A program made the translations under genes and the position numbers. From positions 7,355-71,354 of the forward strand of contig CAYFUG010000002.1 in NCBI GenBank assembly GCA_964346295.1: DNA of 64,000 nucleotides, in the 5' to 3' direction. Source of the DNA: an uncultured Bdellovibrionales bacterium (lineage in GTDB: Bacteria; Patescibacteriota; Minisyncoccia; Moranbacterales; DUUL01). Below, piece by piece: positions 2,808 through 60,482 of this stretch; the stretch's first letter is position 1, and each line of letters begins with the position of its first letter. The notes below the pieces were generated by a model that saw nothing but the letters and a program-made list of their open reading frames with translations, was not told the origin of the DNA and did no database searches.

Positions 2808-3365
2808 TCACATCTTTCTTAGCTCCCGAGAAACCCGCTTAGCATTGGGAATCGTCTCTCCCACCAACGCCCAAAACCGTGGGGAATGATTCATCTCCTT
2901 GAGATGACACAACTCGTGTACCACCAGATAGTCCCGTAAGTTGGCCGGCAACCACGCCAAGCGATAATTAAAATTGAGATTATTCTGACTGCTACAACTC
3001 CCCCAGCGACTCTTTTGATCCCGAATGGCAATCCGCTCCCATTGAAAACCATAGTGCCGATTGAAATGCTCCAGCCGCTCTCGAGCAATCTGACGAGCCT
3101 GCTCTTTGAGCTTCAAATAATCCTCTCGCGTGCCTCGCTGAAGCAAGCGCTGCTGACCCTGACTCTCTTTTAGCCTTTGGGCAATCCAATCTTTTTGAGT
3201 TTTAGCAAAATCTAACGCTCGCCGCAAACTTTCTCGCTCCGGCACTACCAAAATCACCTCTCCCCCGCTTATTTTAAGAGAAATCTTCCGCGCCTTCTTG
3301 CTTCGTCGAACTTGACAATTAACTTGGTTGTTTTTTCCAGCTTCTTCAACTTTTTCAACTTCCAT
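2808..3365 (-). CDS. YgjP-like M48-family metal-dependent hydrolase (DUF45)
   Basis: VVHELCHLKEMNHSPRFWALV contains the HExxH zinc motif and WLM/DUF45 context typical of the YgjP family. Confidence 0.85.
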   Translation of the reverse strand: MEVEKVEEAGKNNQVNCQVRRSKKARKISLKISGGEVILVVPERESLRRALDFAKTQKDWIAQRLKESQGQQRLLQRGTREDYLKLKEQARQIARERLEHFNRHYGFQWERIAIRDQKSRWGSCSSQNNLNFNYRLAWLPANLRDYLVVHELCHLKEMNHSPRFWALVGETIPNAKRVSRELRKM

Positions 3366-7159: not shown

Positions 7160-7546
7160 CTACCTATTATATTTTGCAACCTCAATTAGATTACCTTCAG
7201 TGTCATAAAATTGAAAACATCGATAGTAGTAATCAGTAAAATCTAAGTTTTCCGGCTCATCTTTGATCTTAACATCTTCATACATCTTAACCTTTTCGTA
7301 GACCGCATCAACATCATCAGACCAAAAAGCAACAATGGAATTATTCCCAACTGTCCTTTTATTTGAAATGATATCAGGATTTATTAAACCAAAATAACAA
7401 CCTTCACCAAGATCAAAATCAGCCCAACGGTTCTCTTCATAGTTGGAAACTTTCCGGCCCAAAAGATCTTCATAAAATTTAATCGCTCTATCAAGATCTT
7501 TTGCTGACACATAAGAATGGTCAAATTTCATTGTTGCCTTTTTCAT
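7160..7546 (-). CDS. VOC/glyoxalase-bleomycin resistance family protein
   Basis: Size and ...RAIKFYEDLLG... pattern typical of glyoxalase-fold proteins; somewhat AT-rich. Confidence 0.7.
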   Translation of the reverse strand: MKKATMKFDHSYVSAKDLDRAIKFYEDLLGRKVSNYEENRWADFDLGEGCYFGLINPDIISNKRTVGNNSIVAFWSDDVDAVYEKVKMYEDVKIKDEPENLDFTDYYYRCFQFYDTEGNLIEVAKYNR

Positions 7547-9398: not shown

Positions 9399-10160
9399 CT
9401 AAGCTTTCGCCTTAATCGCGGGAGCCTTCCGCTTAGTCTCTAAAATCTTTTTCAAAAATACTCCGCAAATATACCGCAAAGAAGACAAGGCGTCATCATT
9501 AGCTGGGATGGGAAACTCCACTAACTCTGGATTACTATTAGAGTCCACTAAGCCAATCACCGGAATTCCCATCTTCTGAGATTCTTTAACTGCCAGTTTA
9601 TCTTTATTGATGTCTAAAACAATTACCAATCCCGGGAGCTCCTTAAGATTAATCAGGCCGCCCATTTTTTCTTCGATTCGCTCCAACTCCTTGGATAACT
9701 TAGTTCGCTCTAGCTTAGTTAAACCAGAAAGACGCCCTTTTTTAAGGGTTTCTTGGCTATCCAAATAGTATTTAATCCTTTTCTTGATAACCGGAAAATT
9801 GGTTAAGGTTCCTCCTATCCAACGCTCATTGACATAAGTAATATCAGCTTTTTCCGCCACTGCTTGCACCAAATCCTTAGCTTGTCGCTTAGTTCCGACC
9901 AAAGTAATAGGCTGGCCTTTTTCTATTACTCTCGCTACTTCTCCTAAAGCCTTCTGAAAAAGCTTCAGGGATTTCTCTAGGTCAATGATATGCACACCAT
10001 TACGCATCCCAAAGATATAAGAATTCATCTTGGGATTCCAGCGAGATTTTTTATGGCCAAAATGCATTCCGGCTTTCAGCATCGCTTCTAGCGATAGATC
10101 GTACTTGTTTTCTTCAGCTTCTGCCGGAGAAGAAGCTGCAACTGCTTGTTTTTCAGTCAT
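9399..10160 (-). CDS. rpsB: 30S ribosomal protein S2
   Basis: MLKAGMHFGHKKSRWNPKMNSYIFGMRNGVHIIDLEKS is the canonical bS2 signature. Confidence 0.95.
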   Translation of the reverse strand: MTEKQAVAASSPAEAEENKYDLSLEAMLKAGMHFGHKKSRWNPKMNSYIFGMRNGVHIIDLEKSLKLFQKALGEVARVIEKGQPITLVGTKRQAKDLVQAVAEKADITYVNERWIGGTLTNFPVIKKRIKYYLDSQETLKKGRLSGLTKLERTKLSKELERIEEKMGGLINLKELPGLVIVLDINKDKLAVKESQKMGIPVIGLVDSNSNPELVEFPIPANDDALSSLRYICGVFLKKILETKRKAPAIKAKA

Positions 10161-10187: not shown

Positions 10188-10420
10188 GAAACTGCCTAAG
10201 GACTATTCTTCTTTGATGAAAGCTCTCTAATTTCGTGCCTCACTTTGGAAGGTAAGATCAGAAGGCAAGAAAGGACTTTTAGTTTAATCTACTGGTAGTA
10301 GTTAGTCTAAGTTACCGGCAAGAACTCTGAACGAGAAAACTCTGAAAAAGAATCCTTGAATTTTTCCTCTCCAGAGCGAAATGGGCACCCGAAATTTAAG
10401 GTTTTCAGGGGAAAATATAG
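10188..10420. repeat. Direct repeat copy 1 (about 233 bp) in the rpsB upstream region
   Basis: gaaactgcctaaggactattcttc...gaaatttaaggttttcagg recurs 498 bp downstream at about 97% identity; its ends loosely resemble the arm motifs of the intergenic repeat family. Confidence 0.85.
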
Positions 10421-10685: not shown

Positions 10686-10918
10686 GAAACTGCCTAAGGA
10701 CTATTCTTCGTTGATGAAAGCTCTCTAATTTCGTGCCTCACTTTGGAAGGTAAGATCAGAAGGCAAGAAAGGACTTTTAGTTTAATCTACTGGTAGTAGT
10801 TAGTCTAAGTTACCGGCAAGAACTCTGAACGAGAAAACTCTGAAAAAGAATCCTTGAATTTTTCCTCTCCAGAGCGAAATGGGCAACCGAAATTTAAGGT
10901 TTTCAGCGGAAAATACAC
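10686..10918. repeat. Direct repeat copy 2 (about 233 bp), separated from copy 1 by about 265 bp of unique sequence
   Basis: Near-identical to 10188-10420 with four visible substitutions. Confidence 0.85.
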
Positions 10919-10922
10919 TCGA

Positions 10923-12362
10923 CTAAGGACTAATTACTATGTCCCCCCTGGATTTAATCTGATAGGTTTTGCTCTCTCCCTTTTCGCCAATAATTTCCAC
11001 TTCTCCCTCTAGCTGATCAATTCCCGACTGTTTTTGAATCTGAAGGAGATAATCTTCAAAATTAACTTTCCAGGGCAATTGGTAGTCAAAACTAATTTTC
11101 TGAGACTTTCCTAGAGGAACTGCCAACCGAGTAGCAAAATACTTTCTTCCTAATTCTTCTCCTATTTCAACTTGCTCTGGAGCACTAGAATCCAACAACT
11201 GAGAGCCAGGAGGTAAATAAATTTTTAAGTAAGTATGGTAGTCAGAAGTAAATTCATCTCGTAAGCGCCCATGATGCCAATAAAAAACTGACAACTGAGT
11301 CTGGGCAGGTTCCTGAGATAAGTCTATCTGGTACTGAAAAGAAATTTCTACTAATCGGTCGTTGTCAAATGGGTCTAAGTTGGTATTAGTCACCAGTAGA
11401 TAATCCTCCCTCTCTTCTAGTTGACTCAAGGGCGCTGCCCATCCGACTGTCTTGATTCGAGCCTGGAGATTAGAATCCACAAAGTACACTCTTAGGTCCT
11501 TAGTTTTAATTTCCTGAGTTAATTGCTCCAAAACTTGGGATTTCTTTTCCCATCCAGCCTGAGAAAACTTTCCCCAAATAGCCCTCCAAATAGCCTCTTC
11601 TAAATTGAAGTATTCTTTTTCGGGAATTCTACTCTCCCCTGGCTGAAGAAGTTGATACTTCACTTGATTATTACTGCGAATGCTCTGAAGAACATTCTGA
11701 TGGCTTATCTCTCCTCTCCAGCCAACTACTTCTACTGATCCTAAAATCTTCAAAAGAGGCTTCAAGGATTGCCTAGAAATAGCCACCAATGCCTCCGGAA
11801 GAGCCTCCCTCTTTTTCCTTTCGTTAAAAGAAGAGTTAAAAACCTCTAATCCCAACTGGGCGCTTTGGGGGAAATCGGGCCACCAGTTGCTATTAGCCAC
11901 TTGCCAACTTTCCTGATTGCGAGGGGATATTTGACTTAAAATGTCCGGAAAGTTTTCTTTCTTATTGGAGTTTGCGCTTAGATCGAAAAAGTGGGCATCA
12001 AAAAATTCCACTTGAGAAACTTTTTCGCCCTGAAAACTTACTAGGGCAATAGTTTCAATCTGACCTCCTCCCGGTCTCAAACGATCAGTGTTTTGAAAAA
12101 CAATCAGCAGACTTTTCTCTTCTCCTTTTTTTAAAAAATCAGCAGCTACCCCTAGAAACACTTTTAATTGACCTTTAGTTTCCTCTTCCAGAGAAGACCA
12201 GTTTACCAAGGGATGAAGATACCTCAAGAAACTAGTTGCTCCTTGTCTTTGAAATTTCCAGTACCCCCCCCAGCTCAATAAAAAAACTCCGGCTACCGCC
12301 CAGAACAGCACCCAGAACTTCCAACTTTTATAACTTTTTTTAGGAGAGAAAGATAGTCGCAT
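10923..12362 (-). CDS. Hypothetical N-terminally membrane-anchored protein
   Basis: Long ORF with a single N-terminal TM helix (WKFWVLFWAVAGVFLLSWGGYW); no recognisable catalytic motif. Confidence 0.6.
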   Translation of the reverse strand: MRLSFSPKKSYKSWKFWVLFWAVAGVFLLSWGGYWKFQRQGATSFLRYLHPLVNWSSLEEETKGQLKVFLGVAADFLKKGEEKSLLIVFQNTDRLRPGGGQIETIALVSFQGEKVSQVEFFDAHFFDLSANSNKKENFPDILSQISPRNQESWQVANSNWWPDFPQSAQLGLEVFNSSFNERKKREALPEALVAISRQSLKPLLKILGSVEVVGWRGEISHQNVLQSIRSNNQVKYQLLQPGESRIPEKEYFNLEEAIWRAIWGKFSQAGWEKKSQVLEQLTQEIKTKDLRVYFVDSNLQARIKTVGWAAPLSQLEEREDYLLVTNTNLDPFDNDRLVEISFQYQIDLSQEPAQTQLSVFYWHHGRLRDEFTSDYHTYLKIYLPPGSQLLDSSAPEQVEIGEELGRKYFATRLAVPLGKSQKISFDYQLPWKVNFEDYLLQIQKQSGIDQLEGEVEIIGEKGESKTYQIKSRGDIVISP

Positions 12363-16311: not shown

Positions 16312-16462
16312 AGGGCTTTCAAATTTGAGCAAAGCTCTAGGCGACGCCGAGACTTTGGCCGACCTGTCCCGTCTAGCTTTAGCGATGCGGGAGCCGTACT
16401 GATTGGTACGGTGAGGTCAAAACGCAGGCGGCAACAACGAGATTTGCCAAACTTGAAAATCC
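16312..16462 (+). repeat. Intergenic structured repeat, copy A (about 150 nt), ending 1 nt before the start codon of the downstream gene
   Basis: 5' arm agggctttcaaatttgagcaaagctctagg and 3' arm gtacggtgaggtcaaaacgcaggcggcaacaacgagatttgccaaacttgaaaatcc are shared with copies at 34969-35130, 26175-26289, 61190-61269, 17690-17772 and inverted at 42706-42822. The terminal arms are mutually complementary. Confidence 0.8.
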
Positions 16463-17784: not shown

Positions 17785-17883
17785 TGCAGACGAGAGGATT
17801 CGAACCTCTAACCTCCTTACTTTCTCTCGTTGACACTGCAACGAGAGAAAGTAAAGCGCTCAGCCTTTTTGAGCTTCGTCTGC
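17785..17883 (-). tRNA. tRNA-like gene with a 25-nt insertion in the anticodon loop forming an 18-bp continuous hairpin; anticodon ambiguous (UUC/Glu if 37/38 intron; GAA/Phe alternative)
   Basis: Minus strand reads GCAGACG-AA-GCUC-AAAAAGGCU-GAGC-G-CUUUA-[32 nt]-UAAGG-AGGUU-AGAGG-UUCGAAU-CCUCU-CGUCUGC-A. It has a 7-bp acceptor stem, D arm with GG, and canonical T arm (G53, UUCGAAU, C61). A8 is atypical. No encoded CCA. Confidence 0.6.
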
Positions 17884-23428: not shown

Positions 23429-23456
23429 GTTTTTCAAATTTTGAAAATTTGAAAGG
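23429..23456. repeat. Short palindromic motif (ttcaaattttgaaaatttgaaagg) immediately 3' of a stop codon; compact relative of the repeat family arms
   Basis: Same ttttcaaaatttgaaa palindrome as at 46935-46962, 47796-47830 and 26270-26289. Confidence 0.5.
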
Positions 23457-26174: not shown

Positions 26175-26289
26175 CTTTTAAGTTTTAGGAAAGCTCTAGA
26201 CGAAGTCGAGGTTTTGAATAAGGCGCACTGAAATGTACGGCGATCTCAAAACGCAGGCAACAATAACGAGATTTTCAAAATTTGAAAGC
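26175..26289 (+). repeat. Intergenic structured repeat, copy B (about 115 nt)
   Basis: cttttaagttttaggaaagctctagacgaagtcgag ... gtacggcgatctcaaaacgcaggcaacaataacgagattttcaaaatttgaaagc. The ORF track translates it as MYGDLKTQATITRFSKFESF. Confidence 0.8.
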
Positions 26290-34968: not shown

Positions 34969-35130
34969 AGGGCTTTCAAGTTTGAGTGAAGCTCTACCTG
35001 AGTCTCGTCAACAGGCGAGATCAGCGCCGAGGTTTCGCTCGTAGAGAAGACATGCCATGGCATGTCTCTACCCATACTGTAAAAACAAAACGCAGGCGAC
35101 AACAACGAGATTCACCAAACTTAAAAGTCC
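34969..35130 (+). repeat. Intergenic structured repeat, copy C (about 162 nt), abutting the ftsH stop codon
   Basis: agggctttcaagtttgagtgaagctctacc ... aaaacgcaggcgacaacaacgagattcaccaaacttaaaagtcc. Internal perfect palindrome agacatgccatggcatgtct; inner helix gaagctctac/gtagagaag. Confidence 0.8.
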
Positions 35131-36984
35131 CTAGTCTTTTACCAACGCATCAAACTCATCCTTCTCCAAAGTCTCTTTCCTAATCAACTCCTTAGCTACC
35201 TTCTCTAAAGTCTCTGCTTTTTCGTCTAGAATCTCTCGAGCCTTTTGATGAGCCTCCTCAATAAAGCGACGCACTTCCTCGTCAATGCTTTCCGCCACTC
35301 TCTCGGAGTAGTTTTTGCGCTCTTGAATATCCCGCCCCAAAAATACCAAATCATCATTTTCGCCATAAGTAACCGGCCCCAACTTACTCATTCCAAAGCG
35401 AGTCACCAACTTACGAGCCATCTCCGTCGCCCGCTCTAGATCATTAGAAGCTCCCGTGGTCATCTCATCAAAAATTCGCTCCTCGGCGGCATAACCACCC
35501 AACAGCACCGCCAACTGATCCAAAAAGTAAGAGCGGAACTTCAAAGAACGATCCTTGTCGGGCACATTGAGAGTATAGCCAGCCGCGTGCCCCCGAGAAA
35601 CAATGGAGACTTTATGAACCGGATCAGCATTGGGCAAAGAAGCAGAAATCAAAGCATGCCCTCCTTCGTGATAAGCAGTAACCTTTTTTTCCTCTGGAGA
35701 AAAAACCTTGCTGCGCCGCTCCGGCCCCAAAATTACCTTTTCGATTGCCTCCCTCAGCTCGTCCATGCCAGTGGTTTTCTTGTCCCGCCGAGCCGCCAAA
35801 ATAGCTCCTTCATTAACCAAGTTTGCCAAATCCGCTCCAGAAAAACCCGGTGTTCGCTCAGCAATTTGACGCAATTTAACATCTTTTTCCATTTTTTTAT
35901 CAGTCACATGCAATTTTAAAATTGCCTCTCTTTCTTCAATATCGGGATTATCAATAGTCACTCGCCGATCAAAGCGTCCTGGGCGCAAAAGAGCGGGATC
36001 CAATACATCTGGTCGGTTAGTAGCCGCAATCACAATTACATTCACATTAGTGTCAAATCCGTCCATTTCTACCAAGATTTGATTAAGGGTCTGTTCTCGC
36101 TCGTCGTTACCACCGCCCACGCCGGCTCCTCGATGCCGACCTACTGCGTCAACTTCGTCAATAAAAACAATAGCCGGTGCATTTTTTTTAGCCTGCTTGA
36201 AGAGATCTCGCACTCGGCTAGCTCCCACTCCCACAAACATTTCTACAAATTCGCTTCCAGAGATTGAGAAAAAAGGCACATTAGCCTCTCCAGCCACTGC
36301 CTTGGCCAAAAGAGTTTTTCCAGTACCAGGAGGGCCCAACAGCAAAAATCCTCGCGGGATTCGCGCGCCCAAATCCCAAAATTTCTTAGGATTACGCAAA
36401 AATTCCACTACTTCGTAAAGCTCCTCTTTGGCCTCCTTGGCCCCCGCTACATCTTTGAAGGTAATTCGCCCTTCTTTGTCACGAGCCGGAAGCAAAACTC
36501 GAGCTCGAGAGCGACCAAAGGTCATGGCTTGATTATTGCCTCGCTGGGCTTGCCGCAATAAAAACCAAATAAAAAAAGCAATAAAGAAGAAAGGGAGTAT
36601 AAAAGGAATAAAAACACCCACCCAAAAATCTCGCCCCGAAGTGTCCTCCAGGTTTAACTGAATATCCCTTAGTTTATCCTTCTCCACTCCTACATTAGCC
36701 AAAGATTCCGTCAGGGAACTCTCCGGCTCCTTACGAGAAACTTCCTTGGTGCCATCTTTCAGCTCAATTTCCAGCTCATTGCCCTGGACTTTAATCTCAG
36801 TTACCTCTTCCTCGTTGATTTGACTGGCCAATTCGCTCAGGGAAACCTCCTTTTTCTCTTCTAAAGGAACAGAATAGAGCAAAACTAGACCAGAAATTAC
36901 CACAAAGATACCCAAAAAAATAAATAAATTTCGGGTCAATTTTTTAATAGGACCGCGATTATTAGGATTAACACTTTTTGCCAC
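35131..36984 (-). CDS. ftsH: ATP-dependent zinc metalloprotease FtsH
   Basis: GPPGTGKT Walker A, IDEVD Walker B, second region of homology, HEGGHA zinc motif. Confidence 0.95.
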
Positions 36985-42705: not shown

Positions 42706-42822
42706 CGCATTTGGAAAATTTCGTTGTTACAAGCTGCGTTTAGCGCTCACCGTACCCTTCAGTACGCCTCCCGCTAAGCCTCGCTTGCGCCTAGTAATTT
42801 CCTCAAATCCGTAATCCCTAGG
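42706..42822 (-). repeat. Intergenic structured repeat, copy K, inverted orientation
   Basis: Minus strand reads ctagggattacggatttgaggaaattactaggcgcaagcgagg ... gtacggtgagcgctaaacgcagcttgtaacaacgaaattttccaaatgcg, matching the family 5' and 3' arms. Confidence 0.75.
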
Positions 42823-46934: not shown

Positions 46935-46962
46935 TTTCAAAATTTTCAAAATTTGAAATCCC
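46935..46962. repeat. Short palindromic motif (tttcaaaattttcaaaatttgaaatcc) directly 3' of the clpP stop codon
   Basis: Same palindrome as at 47796-47830 and 23429-23456. Confidence 0.5.
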
Positions 46963-47769: not shown

Positions 47770-47830
47770 GTGTATAACAAACGAGTAACAGAGATTTTGA
47801 CATCAAAATTTTCAAAATTTGGAAGCCCCT
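47770..47830. repeat. Diverged repeat-family copy with palindromic core, directly 3' of tuf
   Basis: aacaaacgagtaacagagattttgacatcaaaattttcaaaatttggaagcccc resembles the family 3' block plus the palindrome. Confidence 0.45.
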
Positions 47831-56210: not shown

Positions 56211-56492
56211 TCATTCAAAGCCAATGGGATTCTCCTTTTTTTCTGCCTCGGTCACTTTACCAAATTTCTCTTCGTATTTTTTTAGATTCTCCTCCATGGC
56301 CTTAATCATCCGCTTAAAGTGGCCAGGAGAAAGCACTACTCGACTATTAAGCGTGCCAGTGGGCGGAAAAACACTTAAAAAATCCAAGACAAACTCTTCT
56401 TTGGTGTGAATAATTTGCATCATGTTGGCATATTTGCCTTTCAAATCTTCGTCAGAAGCTTTGATTTGAATTTGTTGTTTTTGATTGGTCAT
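56211..56492 (-). CDS. DUF3467 protein
   Basis: YANMMQIIHTKEEFVLDF is the DUF3467 core. Confidence 0.65.
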   Translation of the reverse strand: MTNQKQQIQIKASDEDLKGKYANMMQIIHTKEEFVLDFLSVFPPTGTLNSRVVLSPGHFKRMIKAMEENLKKYEEKFGKVTEAEKKENPIGFE

Positions 56493-56529
56493 GTAGTTGG
56501 AATTAACAATTTAAAAAACCTGAAACAAT

Positions 56530-56726
56530 TAATCCTTATCCCAGTTAAGGGGATTATACTCTATGTATTCTCGCAGTTTTTCTAGAGATTTCTCATTGCG
56601 GATGATGTGATCGTAATAACTGCGTTGCCAAGAGAAGCCTGCAGTTTGGATGTTTTTTCTAGCCTCAACTAAACCGCTAAATCCCTCGTCCACAAAGCCC
56701 CATAGCGAGCCAAAAGAGGAAGCAGG
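56530..56726 (-). pseudogene. 3' fragment of a RAYT / IS200-like (Y1) transposase, overlapping the 3' end of the oxidoreductase gene in another frame
   Basis: Reads ...EARKNIQTAGFSWQRSYYDHIIRNEKSLEKLREYIEYNPLNWDKD*. The WQR.YYDHIIR...YI.YNP..W block is the characteristic C-terminus of REP-associated tyrosine transposases (COG1943). No N-terminal HuH or catalytic Tyr region is present. Confidence 0.55.
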
Positions 56727-57910
56727 TGCGGCTTAAGGACAATTCCCTCTAAACCTTGGCCAAAGTTCTTGGCATCGGCAAATTGACGCAAAAAAGTCTC
56801 TTTGTCCCTAGCAATCAAGGTAAACATCGCCTCAAAAGTGCTGTCCCGTTTCATTTGATTCCAAATCCAACGGTACAATTGCTGCTTGCGAAAATAATGC
56901 ATCAACCGCTGATGCTGATTGATTCGCCGGTGATACTGCCGAAATACTCGCTGATCCTGATTTTCAAAATACTCCTCCAATAACCCGGCTGCCACCCGGG
57001 CCGAAACCAAGGCCCCCTTGATGCGATCCGCTACAAAAGCTCCACATAATCCAGCCGCGTCGCCCAAAAGCAATACTCGATCTCCATAGTAATGCCGAAG
57101 CGGACCGCCGATCGGAATTTTTCCGGCATAAGCATAAATCTCTCTTCCTTTCACTTGCAAATGGCCTTTATCTTGAATTTTCTCAAAAAAACGCTGAGTT
57201 AACTGTTTGATCTCATTACCATTCTGAGCTAATTTGGCCAACCCTAATCGCAAAGCTGGCTCACCTGCTACCTGAGTAGGCGACATCCAACCTCCGTAAC
57301 CCAAGCTAAACTCACCAAACCAATAGTGATAGACCGAGAATTTCGGCCTCTCCCCTAACAGAATTTTACCCGGGTAAAGCCGCTCATAACCTAAGAGAAA
57401 TTTGCGATTGATTCCCAATCCCGCCGCCTGGGCTACCCGAGAGCTTCCGCCATCCGCTCCAATCACAAACCGCCCTTTGACTTTAAGCGTATCCCCATTG
57501 TTTTTAGCCAGTACTTCCAAGTGGTCAGCTCTCCTATTCAAAGAAGAGAATTCCCAGCCCAACTCAATTTTAACATTAGAATTCGAACTATCTCCCAAGG
57601 CCTTTATCAAAGCTGGAGTGTCAGTAGAAAAAACCCAAGGCTTGGCAGACGAAGAAAAGAAGTTGGTCTCAAAATCAGTCGAAATAACTCCGATGGTGTC
57701 GATATCGTTGGTGAGAAATTTTTTCAAACCAGGAAGCTCCTCTTCTAACAGCTCCTTGGTGCGATTAGTCACCAGGCCGGTTGATTCATAGGCCGCATTT
57801 AGTTTGGCCTTTCTCTCCAAAATCAAAACCCGCTTATCCGAACCCAAATGACGAGCCAATGTCAGGCCCGCAAATCCTCCCCCTACAATAATAACATCGT
57901 AAATTGGCAT
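56669..57910 (-). CDS. FAD-dependent oxidoreductase (geranylgeranyl reductase family)
   Basis: MPIYDVIIVGGGFAGLTLARHL dinucleotide-binding motif; GDAAGL motif. Confidence 0.85.
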   Translation of the reverse strand: MPIYDVIIVGGGFAGLTLARHLGSDKRVLILERKAKLNAAYESTGLVTNRTKELLEEELPGLKKFLTNDIDTIGVISTDFETNFFSSSAKPWVFSTDTPALIKALGDSSNSNVKIELGWEFSSLNRRADHLEVLAKNNGDTLKVKGRFVIGADGGSSRVAQAAGLGINRKFLLGYERLYPGKILLGERPKFSVYHYWFGEFSLGYGGWMSPTQVAGEPALRLGLAKLAQNGNEIKQLTQRFFEKIQDKGHLQVKGREIYAYAGKIPIGGPLRHYYGDRVLLLGDAAGLCGAFVADRIKGALVSARVAAGLLEEYFENQDQRVFRQYHRRINQHQRLMHYFRKQQLYRWIWNQMKRDSTFEAMFTLIARDKETFLRQFADAKNFGQGLEGIVLKPHLLPLLARYGALWTRDLAV

Positions 57911-59496: not shown

Positions 59497-59540
59497 TTTC
59501 TATTTATTTTTAAAATTTTAAGTTAACTATCGCGACACTA

Positions 59541-60482
59541 TTAATCATAGAATTTTCTCAGATCTCCTTTTTTAAAAGTCCACTCCGGAGTAATTAAGCT
59601 ATCTTCAAAGTCAACGCTAAACCAAGGACTTAAGCTTTTGTTTTGAGGTTTTTGCAAAACATGAATATCCTGGGCTGGCATATAACTTTGCGCTAAGAGA
59701 AAAATCTTTCACCCGTTACAGAATCCGCCGCTACATCCACCACCAACACGGCATGCCCTGGACTTCCACCTTGAATTATCACTTGCCCTGCCGTCAAATC
59801 CTGCCAAGAAGCCAAGTCTAGTTCTTGTTCTAAAGAAAAAGTGCCGGCATAAGTAAAAACCAAATCCAGATAGCGTCGAAAACTCTCGCGAGAATAATCC
59901 TCCGGAGCTATTTTATTCCAATCTGCCCTCCCGGAAGAGAAATCGGGCCGATAGCCTTGCGCGTATTTTTCAAAAGAAGCCTCTCGGCCATTAGTAAAGT
60001 TAAAGTGAGTCTCTGAATAATCACCTTTCCTGGCCTATTTAATTTTCTCAAAAAGATACTCTGCTCGCAAGCAAATCACTGCATCGGCGCATTGCTGCAA
60101 ATCCCGTTTTCCTCGATCAATTTCCAACACAGCAAATTGGGCTGTTTGGTTTCTTTTAGGCTTTCCGTTATAGAAATAAACCTTTTTGGAATCTGTTTTC
60201 AACGGAAAATTTGCAAATAAGAATTGAGAGAGACTTCGACAAGAGACACCCGCTCAAAGCCCTTCGGAAGAGGAATCTCTCCCACTCGAGAAAATCTCCC
60301 GGCCTCCCAGATTATTTCCGAGCTGTTCGATTTTTCTAGCCATAAGTCACTTGAACTCGAGCTGGCAACTTCCTCCCGATTTGAATCTCCGTTCTCGTAA
60401 CCACTGTTCCCTTTACCACAACCGGACACCGCCAACAAAGTGCTCGTCACAAAAAAACAAAAACAGGCCTGCTACCAGCCAT
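59541..60482 (-). pseudogene. Decayed lipoprotein gene: frameshift in the signal peptide at an A7CA5 tract, two in-frame TAG stops and at least two further frameshifts
   Basis: Minus strand reads MAGSRPVFVFL* then FFVTSTLLAVSGCGKGNSG... (lipobox) ...LQIFR*, then frame-shifted ...[54 protein letters not shown] (TAG near 60035), ...GSPGHAVLVVDVAADSVTGERFFS* (TAG near 59693), then ...AQSYMPAQDIHVLQKPQNKSLSPWFSVDFEDSLITPEWTFKKGDLRKFYD*. TAG is a genuine stop in neighbouring genes. Confidence 0.5.

Follow-up and report, generated by a model that had tools for sequence, protein, structure and literature searches.

A probable 3' relic of a subclass 2.4 RAYT gene between an intact oxidoreductase gene and a DUF3467 gene

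How does the C-terminal end of a REP-associated tyrosine transposase (RAYT, or TnpAREP) come to stand alone between two bacterial genes, and does it still serve any purpose there? The question is raised by a short stretch of the 64,000-nucleotide DNA analyzed here, hereafter called the window. On the minus strand of the window, a reading frame stays open from 56732 to 56532 (67 codons) and closes with a TAA stop at 56529–56531. Its last 44 codons, ARKNIQTAGFSWQRSYYDHIIRNEKSLEKLREYIEYNPLNWDKD, resemble RAYTs of the TnpAREP subclass 2.4 type and together with the stop codon occupy 56529..56663 (minus strand); we refer to this segment as the relic. A mechanically called open reading frame (ORF) of 54 amino acids with a GTG start encloses the relic (56529..56693, minus strand), its codons 1–10 overlapping the 3' end of the upstream gene. 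The source pipelines called no gene at this position.

The relic fills most of the gap between two genes that share its orientation. Upstream is a 413-aa FAD-dependent oxidoreductase of the geranylgeranyl-reductase family (56669..57910, minus strand; Pfam FAD_binding_3, TIGR02032). Downstream is a 93-aa DUF3467 gene (56211..56492, minus strand; Pfam PF11950, E=7e-21), whose start codon lies 36 nt past the relic stop. The 135 nt of the relic account for most of the 176-nt spacer between these genes, where the local median spacer is 153 nt. Neither a promoter, a terminator nor an RNA structure was detected above chance within the relic, and its RNA fold is not significant (z=-0.85). The relic stretch is 100% identical across four independent assemblies from different projects (JGI, Logan and two from ENA), and is therefore no assembly artefact. 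The named relatives of the oxidoreductase are Patescibacteria (Peregrinibacteria, Gracilibacteria, Altimarinota and others), the nearest homologue being 55% identical. Synteny did not recover the ancestral state of the locus: the nearest homologues of the oxidoreductase share no more than 55% identity with it and have other genes as neighbors.

Profile searches place the relic within the RAYT family. Pfam Y1_Tnp (PF01797), a check proposed in the first-pass annotation, matches it over profile positions 88–120 of 121 (E=0.0042, 17.6 bits); the score falls below the gathering score of 23, as expected because only a quarter of the domain is present. The NCBIfam model REP_Tyr_transpos (NF047646) gives a stronger match (E=3.5e-9, 36.7 bits), to be read against an E. 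coli-type model with a cutoff of 80 on which intact relatives themselves reach just 50–63 bits. A subfamily hidden Markov model (HMM) built from 81 full-length homologues scores the relic at 74.9 bits (E=6e-25) over profile positions 127–170 of 187. Run in six frames over the whole 76-kb contig, of which the window makes up positions 7355–71354, the same HMM returned the relic as its sole strong match (E=1.5e-21). Searched exhaustively with HMMER, a library of 1.84 billion representative proteins yielded 6485 at E<=0.001; the full-length matches are 160–220 aa long, and the matching region is their C-terminus. Intact homologues are abundant, Patescibacteria being among their hosts.

The relic has also kept every conserved position of the region to which it corresponds. 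In our alignment A2, all 15 of the invariant or nearly invariant columns within the fragment are retained (W, Q, Y, H, I, R, N, I, Y-I-x-x-N-P, N-W, D). The W is invariant and the Q nearly so, and the Y, I, N and P of the Tyr motif are invariant. The similarity is far above chance, and the NF047646 and subfamily HMM matches bear out the first-pass reading of a C-terminal RAYT remnant. That reading had put the extent of the remnant at 45–55 aa; it was right that only a C-terminal piece is left, while the solid homology comes to 44 aa.

What survives of the enzyme is its last beta-strand, which carries the WQ motif, and the catalytic helix alphaD. The WQ motif is encoded by the codons TGG CAA (56625..56630, minus strand) and is subclass-defining in class 2 TnpAREP (motif table in PMC6006769). 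By phmmer, the fragment SWQRSYYDHIIRNEKSLEKLREYIEYNPLN aligns to residues 93–122 of PDB 4ER8, IWQPRFWEHAIRNTKDYRHHVDYIYINPVK, the sole solved-structure match and a weak one (E=0.55 over 30 residues), and REYIEYNP of the relic is aligned with DYIYINP of E. coli TnpAREP. In the E. coli enzyme, Y115 is the catalytic tyrosine, the HUH motif consists of H59 and H61, and alphaD contributes N119 as a metal ligand (PMC3479197). By alignment to 4ER8, the TAC codon at 56565..56567 (minus strand) encodes the tyrosine equivalent to Y115, so the earlier statement that no catalytic Tyr region is present was wrong. The motif YIEYNP spans 56550–56567 (minus strand), and its Asn codon at 56553–56555 is equivalent to N119.

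The other half of the active site is missing. The HUH motif had been described as absent, and it is: homology to the family sets in only at position 127 of the 187-position profile. Run at maximum sensitivity, a six-frame HMM search of the window, the contig's other 12 kb and a second assembly found no HUH-bearing N-terminal piece in any frame, and tblastn found no second RAYT copy or missing half on the contig. No near-identical intact copy emerged from metagenomes, the best reaching 77% identity over 35 aa among the matches listed, which did not include the relic's own contig. A WQ strand and a Tyr helix without the HUH half cannot form an active site.

Two independent boundaries, one from each side, show where the RAYT-derived DNA starts. 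From the relic side, the subfamily HMM aligns residues 24–67 only of the 67-residue frame (window 56532–56663), and the first 24 residues alone give no score against the RAYT profile. From the oxidoreductase side, the C-terminus ...LLARYGALWTRDLAV aligns with those of homologues such as ...LIRYGVLWLRDWFFIN, and the end ...KPHLLPLLARYGALWTRDLAV matches residue for residue in 47 homologues, for example ...KPRLFPKLIRYGVLWLRDWFFIN. The gene is also full length, as homologues of 412–420 aa cover 99–100% of its 413 aa. The first-pass annotation had the fragment running 57 nt inside the oxidoreductase and about 140 nt beyond it, which is correct against the ORF at 56669..57910. Because the oxidoreductase C-terminus is conserved in homologues, however, those 57 nt are native oxidoreductase DNA read in another frame. 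The HMM boundary and the oxidoreductase alignment likewise show that codons 1–10 of the 54-aa ORF are not of RAYT origin. A RAYT-derived end of the oxidoreductase is excluded by the 47-homologue alignment together with the lack of any score for the first 24 residues, and a longer NCBIfam alignment (fragment residues 6–62) is an over-extension.

The relic thus begins about 6 nt past the oxidoreductase stop codon. The C-terminal alignment and the HMM boundary together confine the deletion or rearrangement junction to 56664..56680 (minus strand), between the last conserved oxidoreductase residue, a D (56681–56683), and the first RAYT-homologous residue (56661–56663). The stop codon TAG itself (56669–56671) falls within this interval. 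Calling the relic fused out of frame onto the 3' end of the oxidoreductase gene therefore overstated the case: it abuts the stop codon, and the native gene end has not been replaced.

The close full-length relatives of the relic belong to a described group. They are 160–220 aa long, with an N-H-[IVLF]-H HUH motif, a WQ motif and YIxNNP, and were found at over 600 sites spread across species-representative genomes from many phyla, with Moran-, Roizman- and Parcubacteria among them. They carry a 28–29-nt perfect palindrome, GTAG[GA]G...C[CT]CTAC, upstream of, downstream of and inside the gene; the in-gene copy sits in a variable linker, about 110–160 nt ahead of the WQ motif. Under a strict test, GTAG palindromes are present at 41 of 80 genome loci of these relatives. 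GTAG-tagged REPs are established partners of RAYTs (PMC3733652), and the combination of HUH, WQ, YIxNNP and an in-gene GTAG REP has been published for TnpAREP subclass 2.4 (PMC6006769), which corresponds to RAYT Group 4 of Bertels et al. (PMC5581495). We assign the relic to this subclass because it has the WQ and YIxxNP motifs and because close relatives bear a REP palindrome inside their genes. Its type is therefore already known: it is a pseudogene fragment of a described RAYT subclass.

As for REPs, the window holds exactly one REP-like element. This orphan is a 31-nt GTAG-tagged palindrome, GTAGAGAAGACATGCCATGGCATGTCTCTAC (35041..35071), at a distance of 21 kb from the relic; removing a 3-nt AGA duplication leaves the perfect 28-mer GTAGAGACATGCCATGGCATGTCTCTAC. 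Its head and tail, GTAGAGAC...GTCTCTAC, are those of REPs around Patescibacteria RAYT genes in three other loci (L019, L026 and L031). It lies at the 5' edge of one copy of a 110-nt repeat, just downstream of the gene at 35131..36984 (minus strand). An indel-tolerant local-alignment scan of about 81 kb detected no other such element in the window and none at all in the stretches on either side of it. The 3-nt indel hides the element from a strict ungapped scan, and gapped global scoring misses it as well. The relic has no GTAG palindrome closer than 20 kb.

Two other repeat families in the window were considered as REPs and rejected. The first, the dispersed repeat of about 110 nt, has the core AAACGCAG-N6-ANAACGARATT and extends from about -75 to +45 nt around the core starts at 16420, 17731, 26249, 35088 and 61229 (plus strand) and 42717–42741 (minus strand). 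These six copies in 64 kb are 66–89% identical in pairs, all intergenic and inconsistently oriented to genes. The repeat has no Rfam match and no convincing consensus fold, its hairpin having 5–6 bp with little covariation. It is non-palindromic, lacks both a GTAG tag and an Rfam match, and does not flank the relic. The second family is an AT-rich palindromic 15-mer, TTTCAAAATTTGAAA, found at four or five sites in intergenic spacers (23432–23454, 26273–26287, 46935–46958 and 47810–47824), with 13 strand-hits where 2.3 are expected. It occurs also at the 3' end of one 110-nt repeat copy. It could be an operator or terminator-like motif; as a REP it fails, having no GTAG tag and not flanking the relic.

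These results divide the earlier proposal of a past or present RAYT–REP system. Its link between the relic and a family of palindromic repeats fails, since the repeat families of the window are not GTAG-tagged and neither flanks the relic, and with it falls the reading of those families as REPs. The single orphan GTAG palindrome lends weak support to a past system. REP and REPIN populations are known to erode after RAYT loss (bioRxiv 10.1101/2021.07.10.451892), and a truncated RAYT together with a single damaged orphan REP across about 81 kb of contig agrees with that published pattern.

Several further features of the window were recorded in passing. A tRNA-like RNA at 17785–17883 (minus strand) scores 47.4 bits against Rfam tRNA, and ARAGORN finds nothing there. 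It folds as a cloverleaf (dG -50.2 kcal/mol, z=-8.1) in which a perfect 18-bp hairpin closed by a 6-nt loop (CAGUGU) makes up the anticodon arm, leaving no normal anticodon loop, and a weak Y-RNA-like (YrlA) match overlaps it (E=0.9). This may represent a tRNA gene that carries a palindromic insert, or else a regulatory RNA that resembles a tRNA. A 230-nt direct repeat, whose two copies (10188–10417 and 10686–10915) are 99% identical and 498 nt apart, lies between the ORFs 9399..10160 and 10923..12362 (both minus strand). A DUF4846 gene at about 59540–60200 (3709–4370 in L001) seems split into three called ORFs of 55, 56 and 46 aa, and is likely a second pseudogene, about 3 kb from the relic.

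Is the loss of the N-terminal part peculiar to this locus? A census of 160 related loci, drawn from genome and metagenome scans, gave 170 copies containing the C-terminus. Most are intact (129/170), 14 are split or frameshifted, and nine are cut by contig ends. The remaining 18 (about 11%) are C-terminal-only, although some of these loci probably represent the same organism resampled and are not all independent. C-terminal remnants are thus ordinary for the RAYT family.

The C-terminal-only copies elsewhere mostly start at profile positions 99–108. In two loci, the relics start right after the REP palindrome that is found inside intact genes (L012, palindrome at 2986–3014; L075, at 2944–2971), a pattern suggestive of a recurrent hotspot of breakage or recombination at the in-gene REP. 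Two others (L103 and L164) start at profile positions 132–134, near position 127 of the present relic. Internal REPs in subclass 2.4 have been published before (PMC6006769); that roughly one copy in ten is C-terminal-only, mostly broken just past the internal REP position, is of modest general interest. RAYT pieces also occur in other arrangements. One Spirochaetaceae locus (L048) holds a tandem cluster of two intact RAYT copies and several fragments. A 157-aa metagenomic ORF (P0003) consists of two tandem C-terminal RAYT halves and a linker, and the linker peptide (..ETQCIASLQ..) matches that of a full-length homologue (P0006).

Combining these observations, we propose that the stretch is, very probably, the non-functional 3' relic of a subclass 2.4 / Group 4 RAYT gene that formerly stood between the oxidoreductase and DUF3467 genes. 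A full RAYT gene would first have lain downstream of the oxidoreductase, in the same orientation as both neighbors. A deletion or rearrangement would then have removed about 126 of the 170 core profile positions, and with them the N-terminal beta-sheet, the HUH motif, the variable linker and the in-gene REP palindrome. The same event would have taken the 5' three quarters of the RAYT gene together with intergenic DNA, ending no more than about 15 nt from the oxidoreductase stop codon. The present role of the relic is most likely no more than that of a co-transcribed spacer between the two cistrons. The homology and its extent, the absence of the N-terminal part from the contig, the native end of the oxidoreductase and the scarcity of REPs are direct observations; from them we infer the succession of events and an absence of expression or function. 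The first-pass annotation had likewise called the piece a dead fragment, on the ground that it has neither an HUH nor a catalytic Tyr region; of these, only the HUH half is in fact missing.

The relic itself shows no sign of decay: its 44 codons are free of stops and frameshifts, and none of the positions conserved in the family has been lost. On a sub-profile it reaches 86.9 bits and outscores all 74 intact genes compared (68.6 +/- 3.6), but the comparison is biased by a profile trained on the relic's own best hits and shows no more than an absence of obvious decay. Because the piece is undecayed, either the truncation is recent or the piece is under selection.

The main rival reading, which we consider very unlikely, is that of a functional micro-gene, translated as the 54-aa ORF from the GTG at 56693 or by coupled re-initiation. 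Its WQ strand and Tyr helix might then act as a regulator, a decoy or, by analogy with dimeric IS608 TnpA, a trans-acting donor of the Tyr helix. The open frame and intact conserved positions agree with this idea, as does the recurrence of C-terminal-only copies in other genomes. The GTG lies 22 nt ahead of the oxidoreductase stop with a weak GGGG stretch upstream, so translational coupling is possible, and in TnpA-IS608 dimers the alphaD helix is domain-swapped (PMC3479197). Yet TnpAREP acts as a monomer whose active site is formed in cis (PMC3479197), and no HUH partner was found on the contig. The first 10 codons of the putative product are unconserved, out-of-frame oxidoreductase sequence, the pipelines saw no gene, and a 44-aa strand-plus-helix would be unlikely to fold alone. 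Relics elsewhere, moreover, start at varied points, mostly within positions 99–108, and a palindrome beside the breakpoint was detected in two loci (L012 and L075), a pattern that suggests a mutational hotspot and not a conserved product. A broader form of the idea, to which we give very little credence, holds that C-terminal-only subclass 2.4 pieces are a recurrent product, often of breakage or recombination at the in-gene REP, that is kept and expressed as small Tyr-helix proteins. If it were true, such proteins may modulate intact RAYTs or REP DNA, and the undecayed 44-codon piece, with its GTG possibly coupled to the oxidoreductase stop, would be a micro-gene in a streamlined Patescibacteria genome.

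The two other rivals concern where the DNA came from. That it is a remnant of a classical mobile IS200/IS605 element (TnpA-IS200, subclass 1.1) and not of a domesticated RAYT is highly improbable. Pfam does place the relic in Y1_Tnp, 'Transposase IS200 like', and one intact relative weakly matches NCBIfam transpos_IS200 (E=1.9e-4). The top NCBIfam model for the relic, however, is REP_Tyr_transpos and not transpos_IS200, and its sole PDB match is the TnpAREP structure 4ER8. Subclass 1.1 is marked by W[TS] and Y[IV]ENQ (PMC6006769), where the relic has WQ and YIEYNP, and the closest full-length relatives have GTAG REPs both inside the gene and next to it. That the match is due to chance or to a chimeric assembly, with no real transposase-derived DNA, has next to no probability: the fragment is short and its Pfam score lies under the gathering threshold, but the two HMM matches (E=3.5e-9 and E=6e-25), the 6485 homologues and the complete identity of four independent assemblies from different projects speak against it.

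As the 3' relic of a RAYT gene, the stretch documents a Patescibacteria-like lineage that would once have had a Group 4 / subclass 2.4 RAYT–REP system and has since mostly lost it. For annotation, the 54-aa ORF is best treated as a pseudogene fragment and the oxidoreductase as intact.

Several known systems can be compared with the relic. It resembles subclass 2.4 enzymes (Quentin et al. 2018, PMC6006769; Bertels et al. 2017, PMC5581495) in its WQ motif and its YIxNNP-type motif, although YIEYNP has a Tyr for the second Asn. It keeps only profile positions 127–170 of 187, lacking the HUH motif (NH[IFV]H, carried on the central beta-strand), the linker and any internal or flanking REP. With E. 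coli TnpAREP (YafM; PDB 4ER8; subclass 2.2 / RAYT Group 2), it shares the Tyr and the Asn ligand in alphaD. The E. coli protein differs in having WE and YIHYNP, and is an intact 165-aa enzyme that is active on REPs and flanked by REP/BIMEs. IS200/IS605 TnpA, such as IS608 TnpA, belongs to the same Y1 HUH superfamily (PF01797) and also has its catalytic Tyr in a C-terminal helix. It is distinguished by W[TS] and Y[IV]ENQ and by a dimeric form with a trans active site, and comes as a multi-copy insertion sequence with subterminal hairpins; the relic is present in a single copy in the window, and flanking hairpins are absent. A further parallel is that of inactivated RAYTs with eroding REPINs, where a disabled RAYT likewise accompanies few or decayed REPs. 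Examples are the frameshifted RAYT of Neisseria gonorrhoeae and the RAYT-less lineages of E. coli and Pseudomonas chlororaphis (bioRxiv 10.1101/2021.07.10.451892). Unlike these, the relic has been cut to a quarter rather than frameshifted, and it belongs to Group 4 rather than to Groups 2 or 3.
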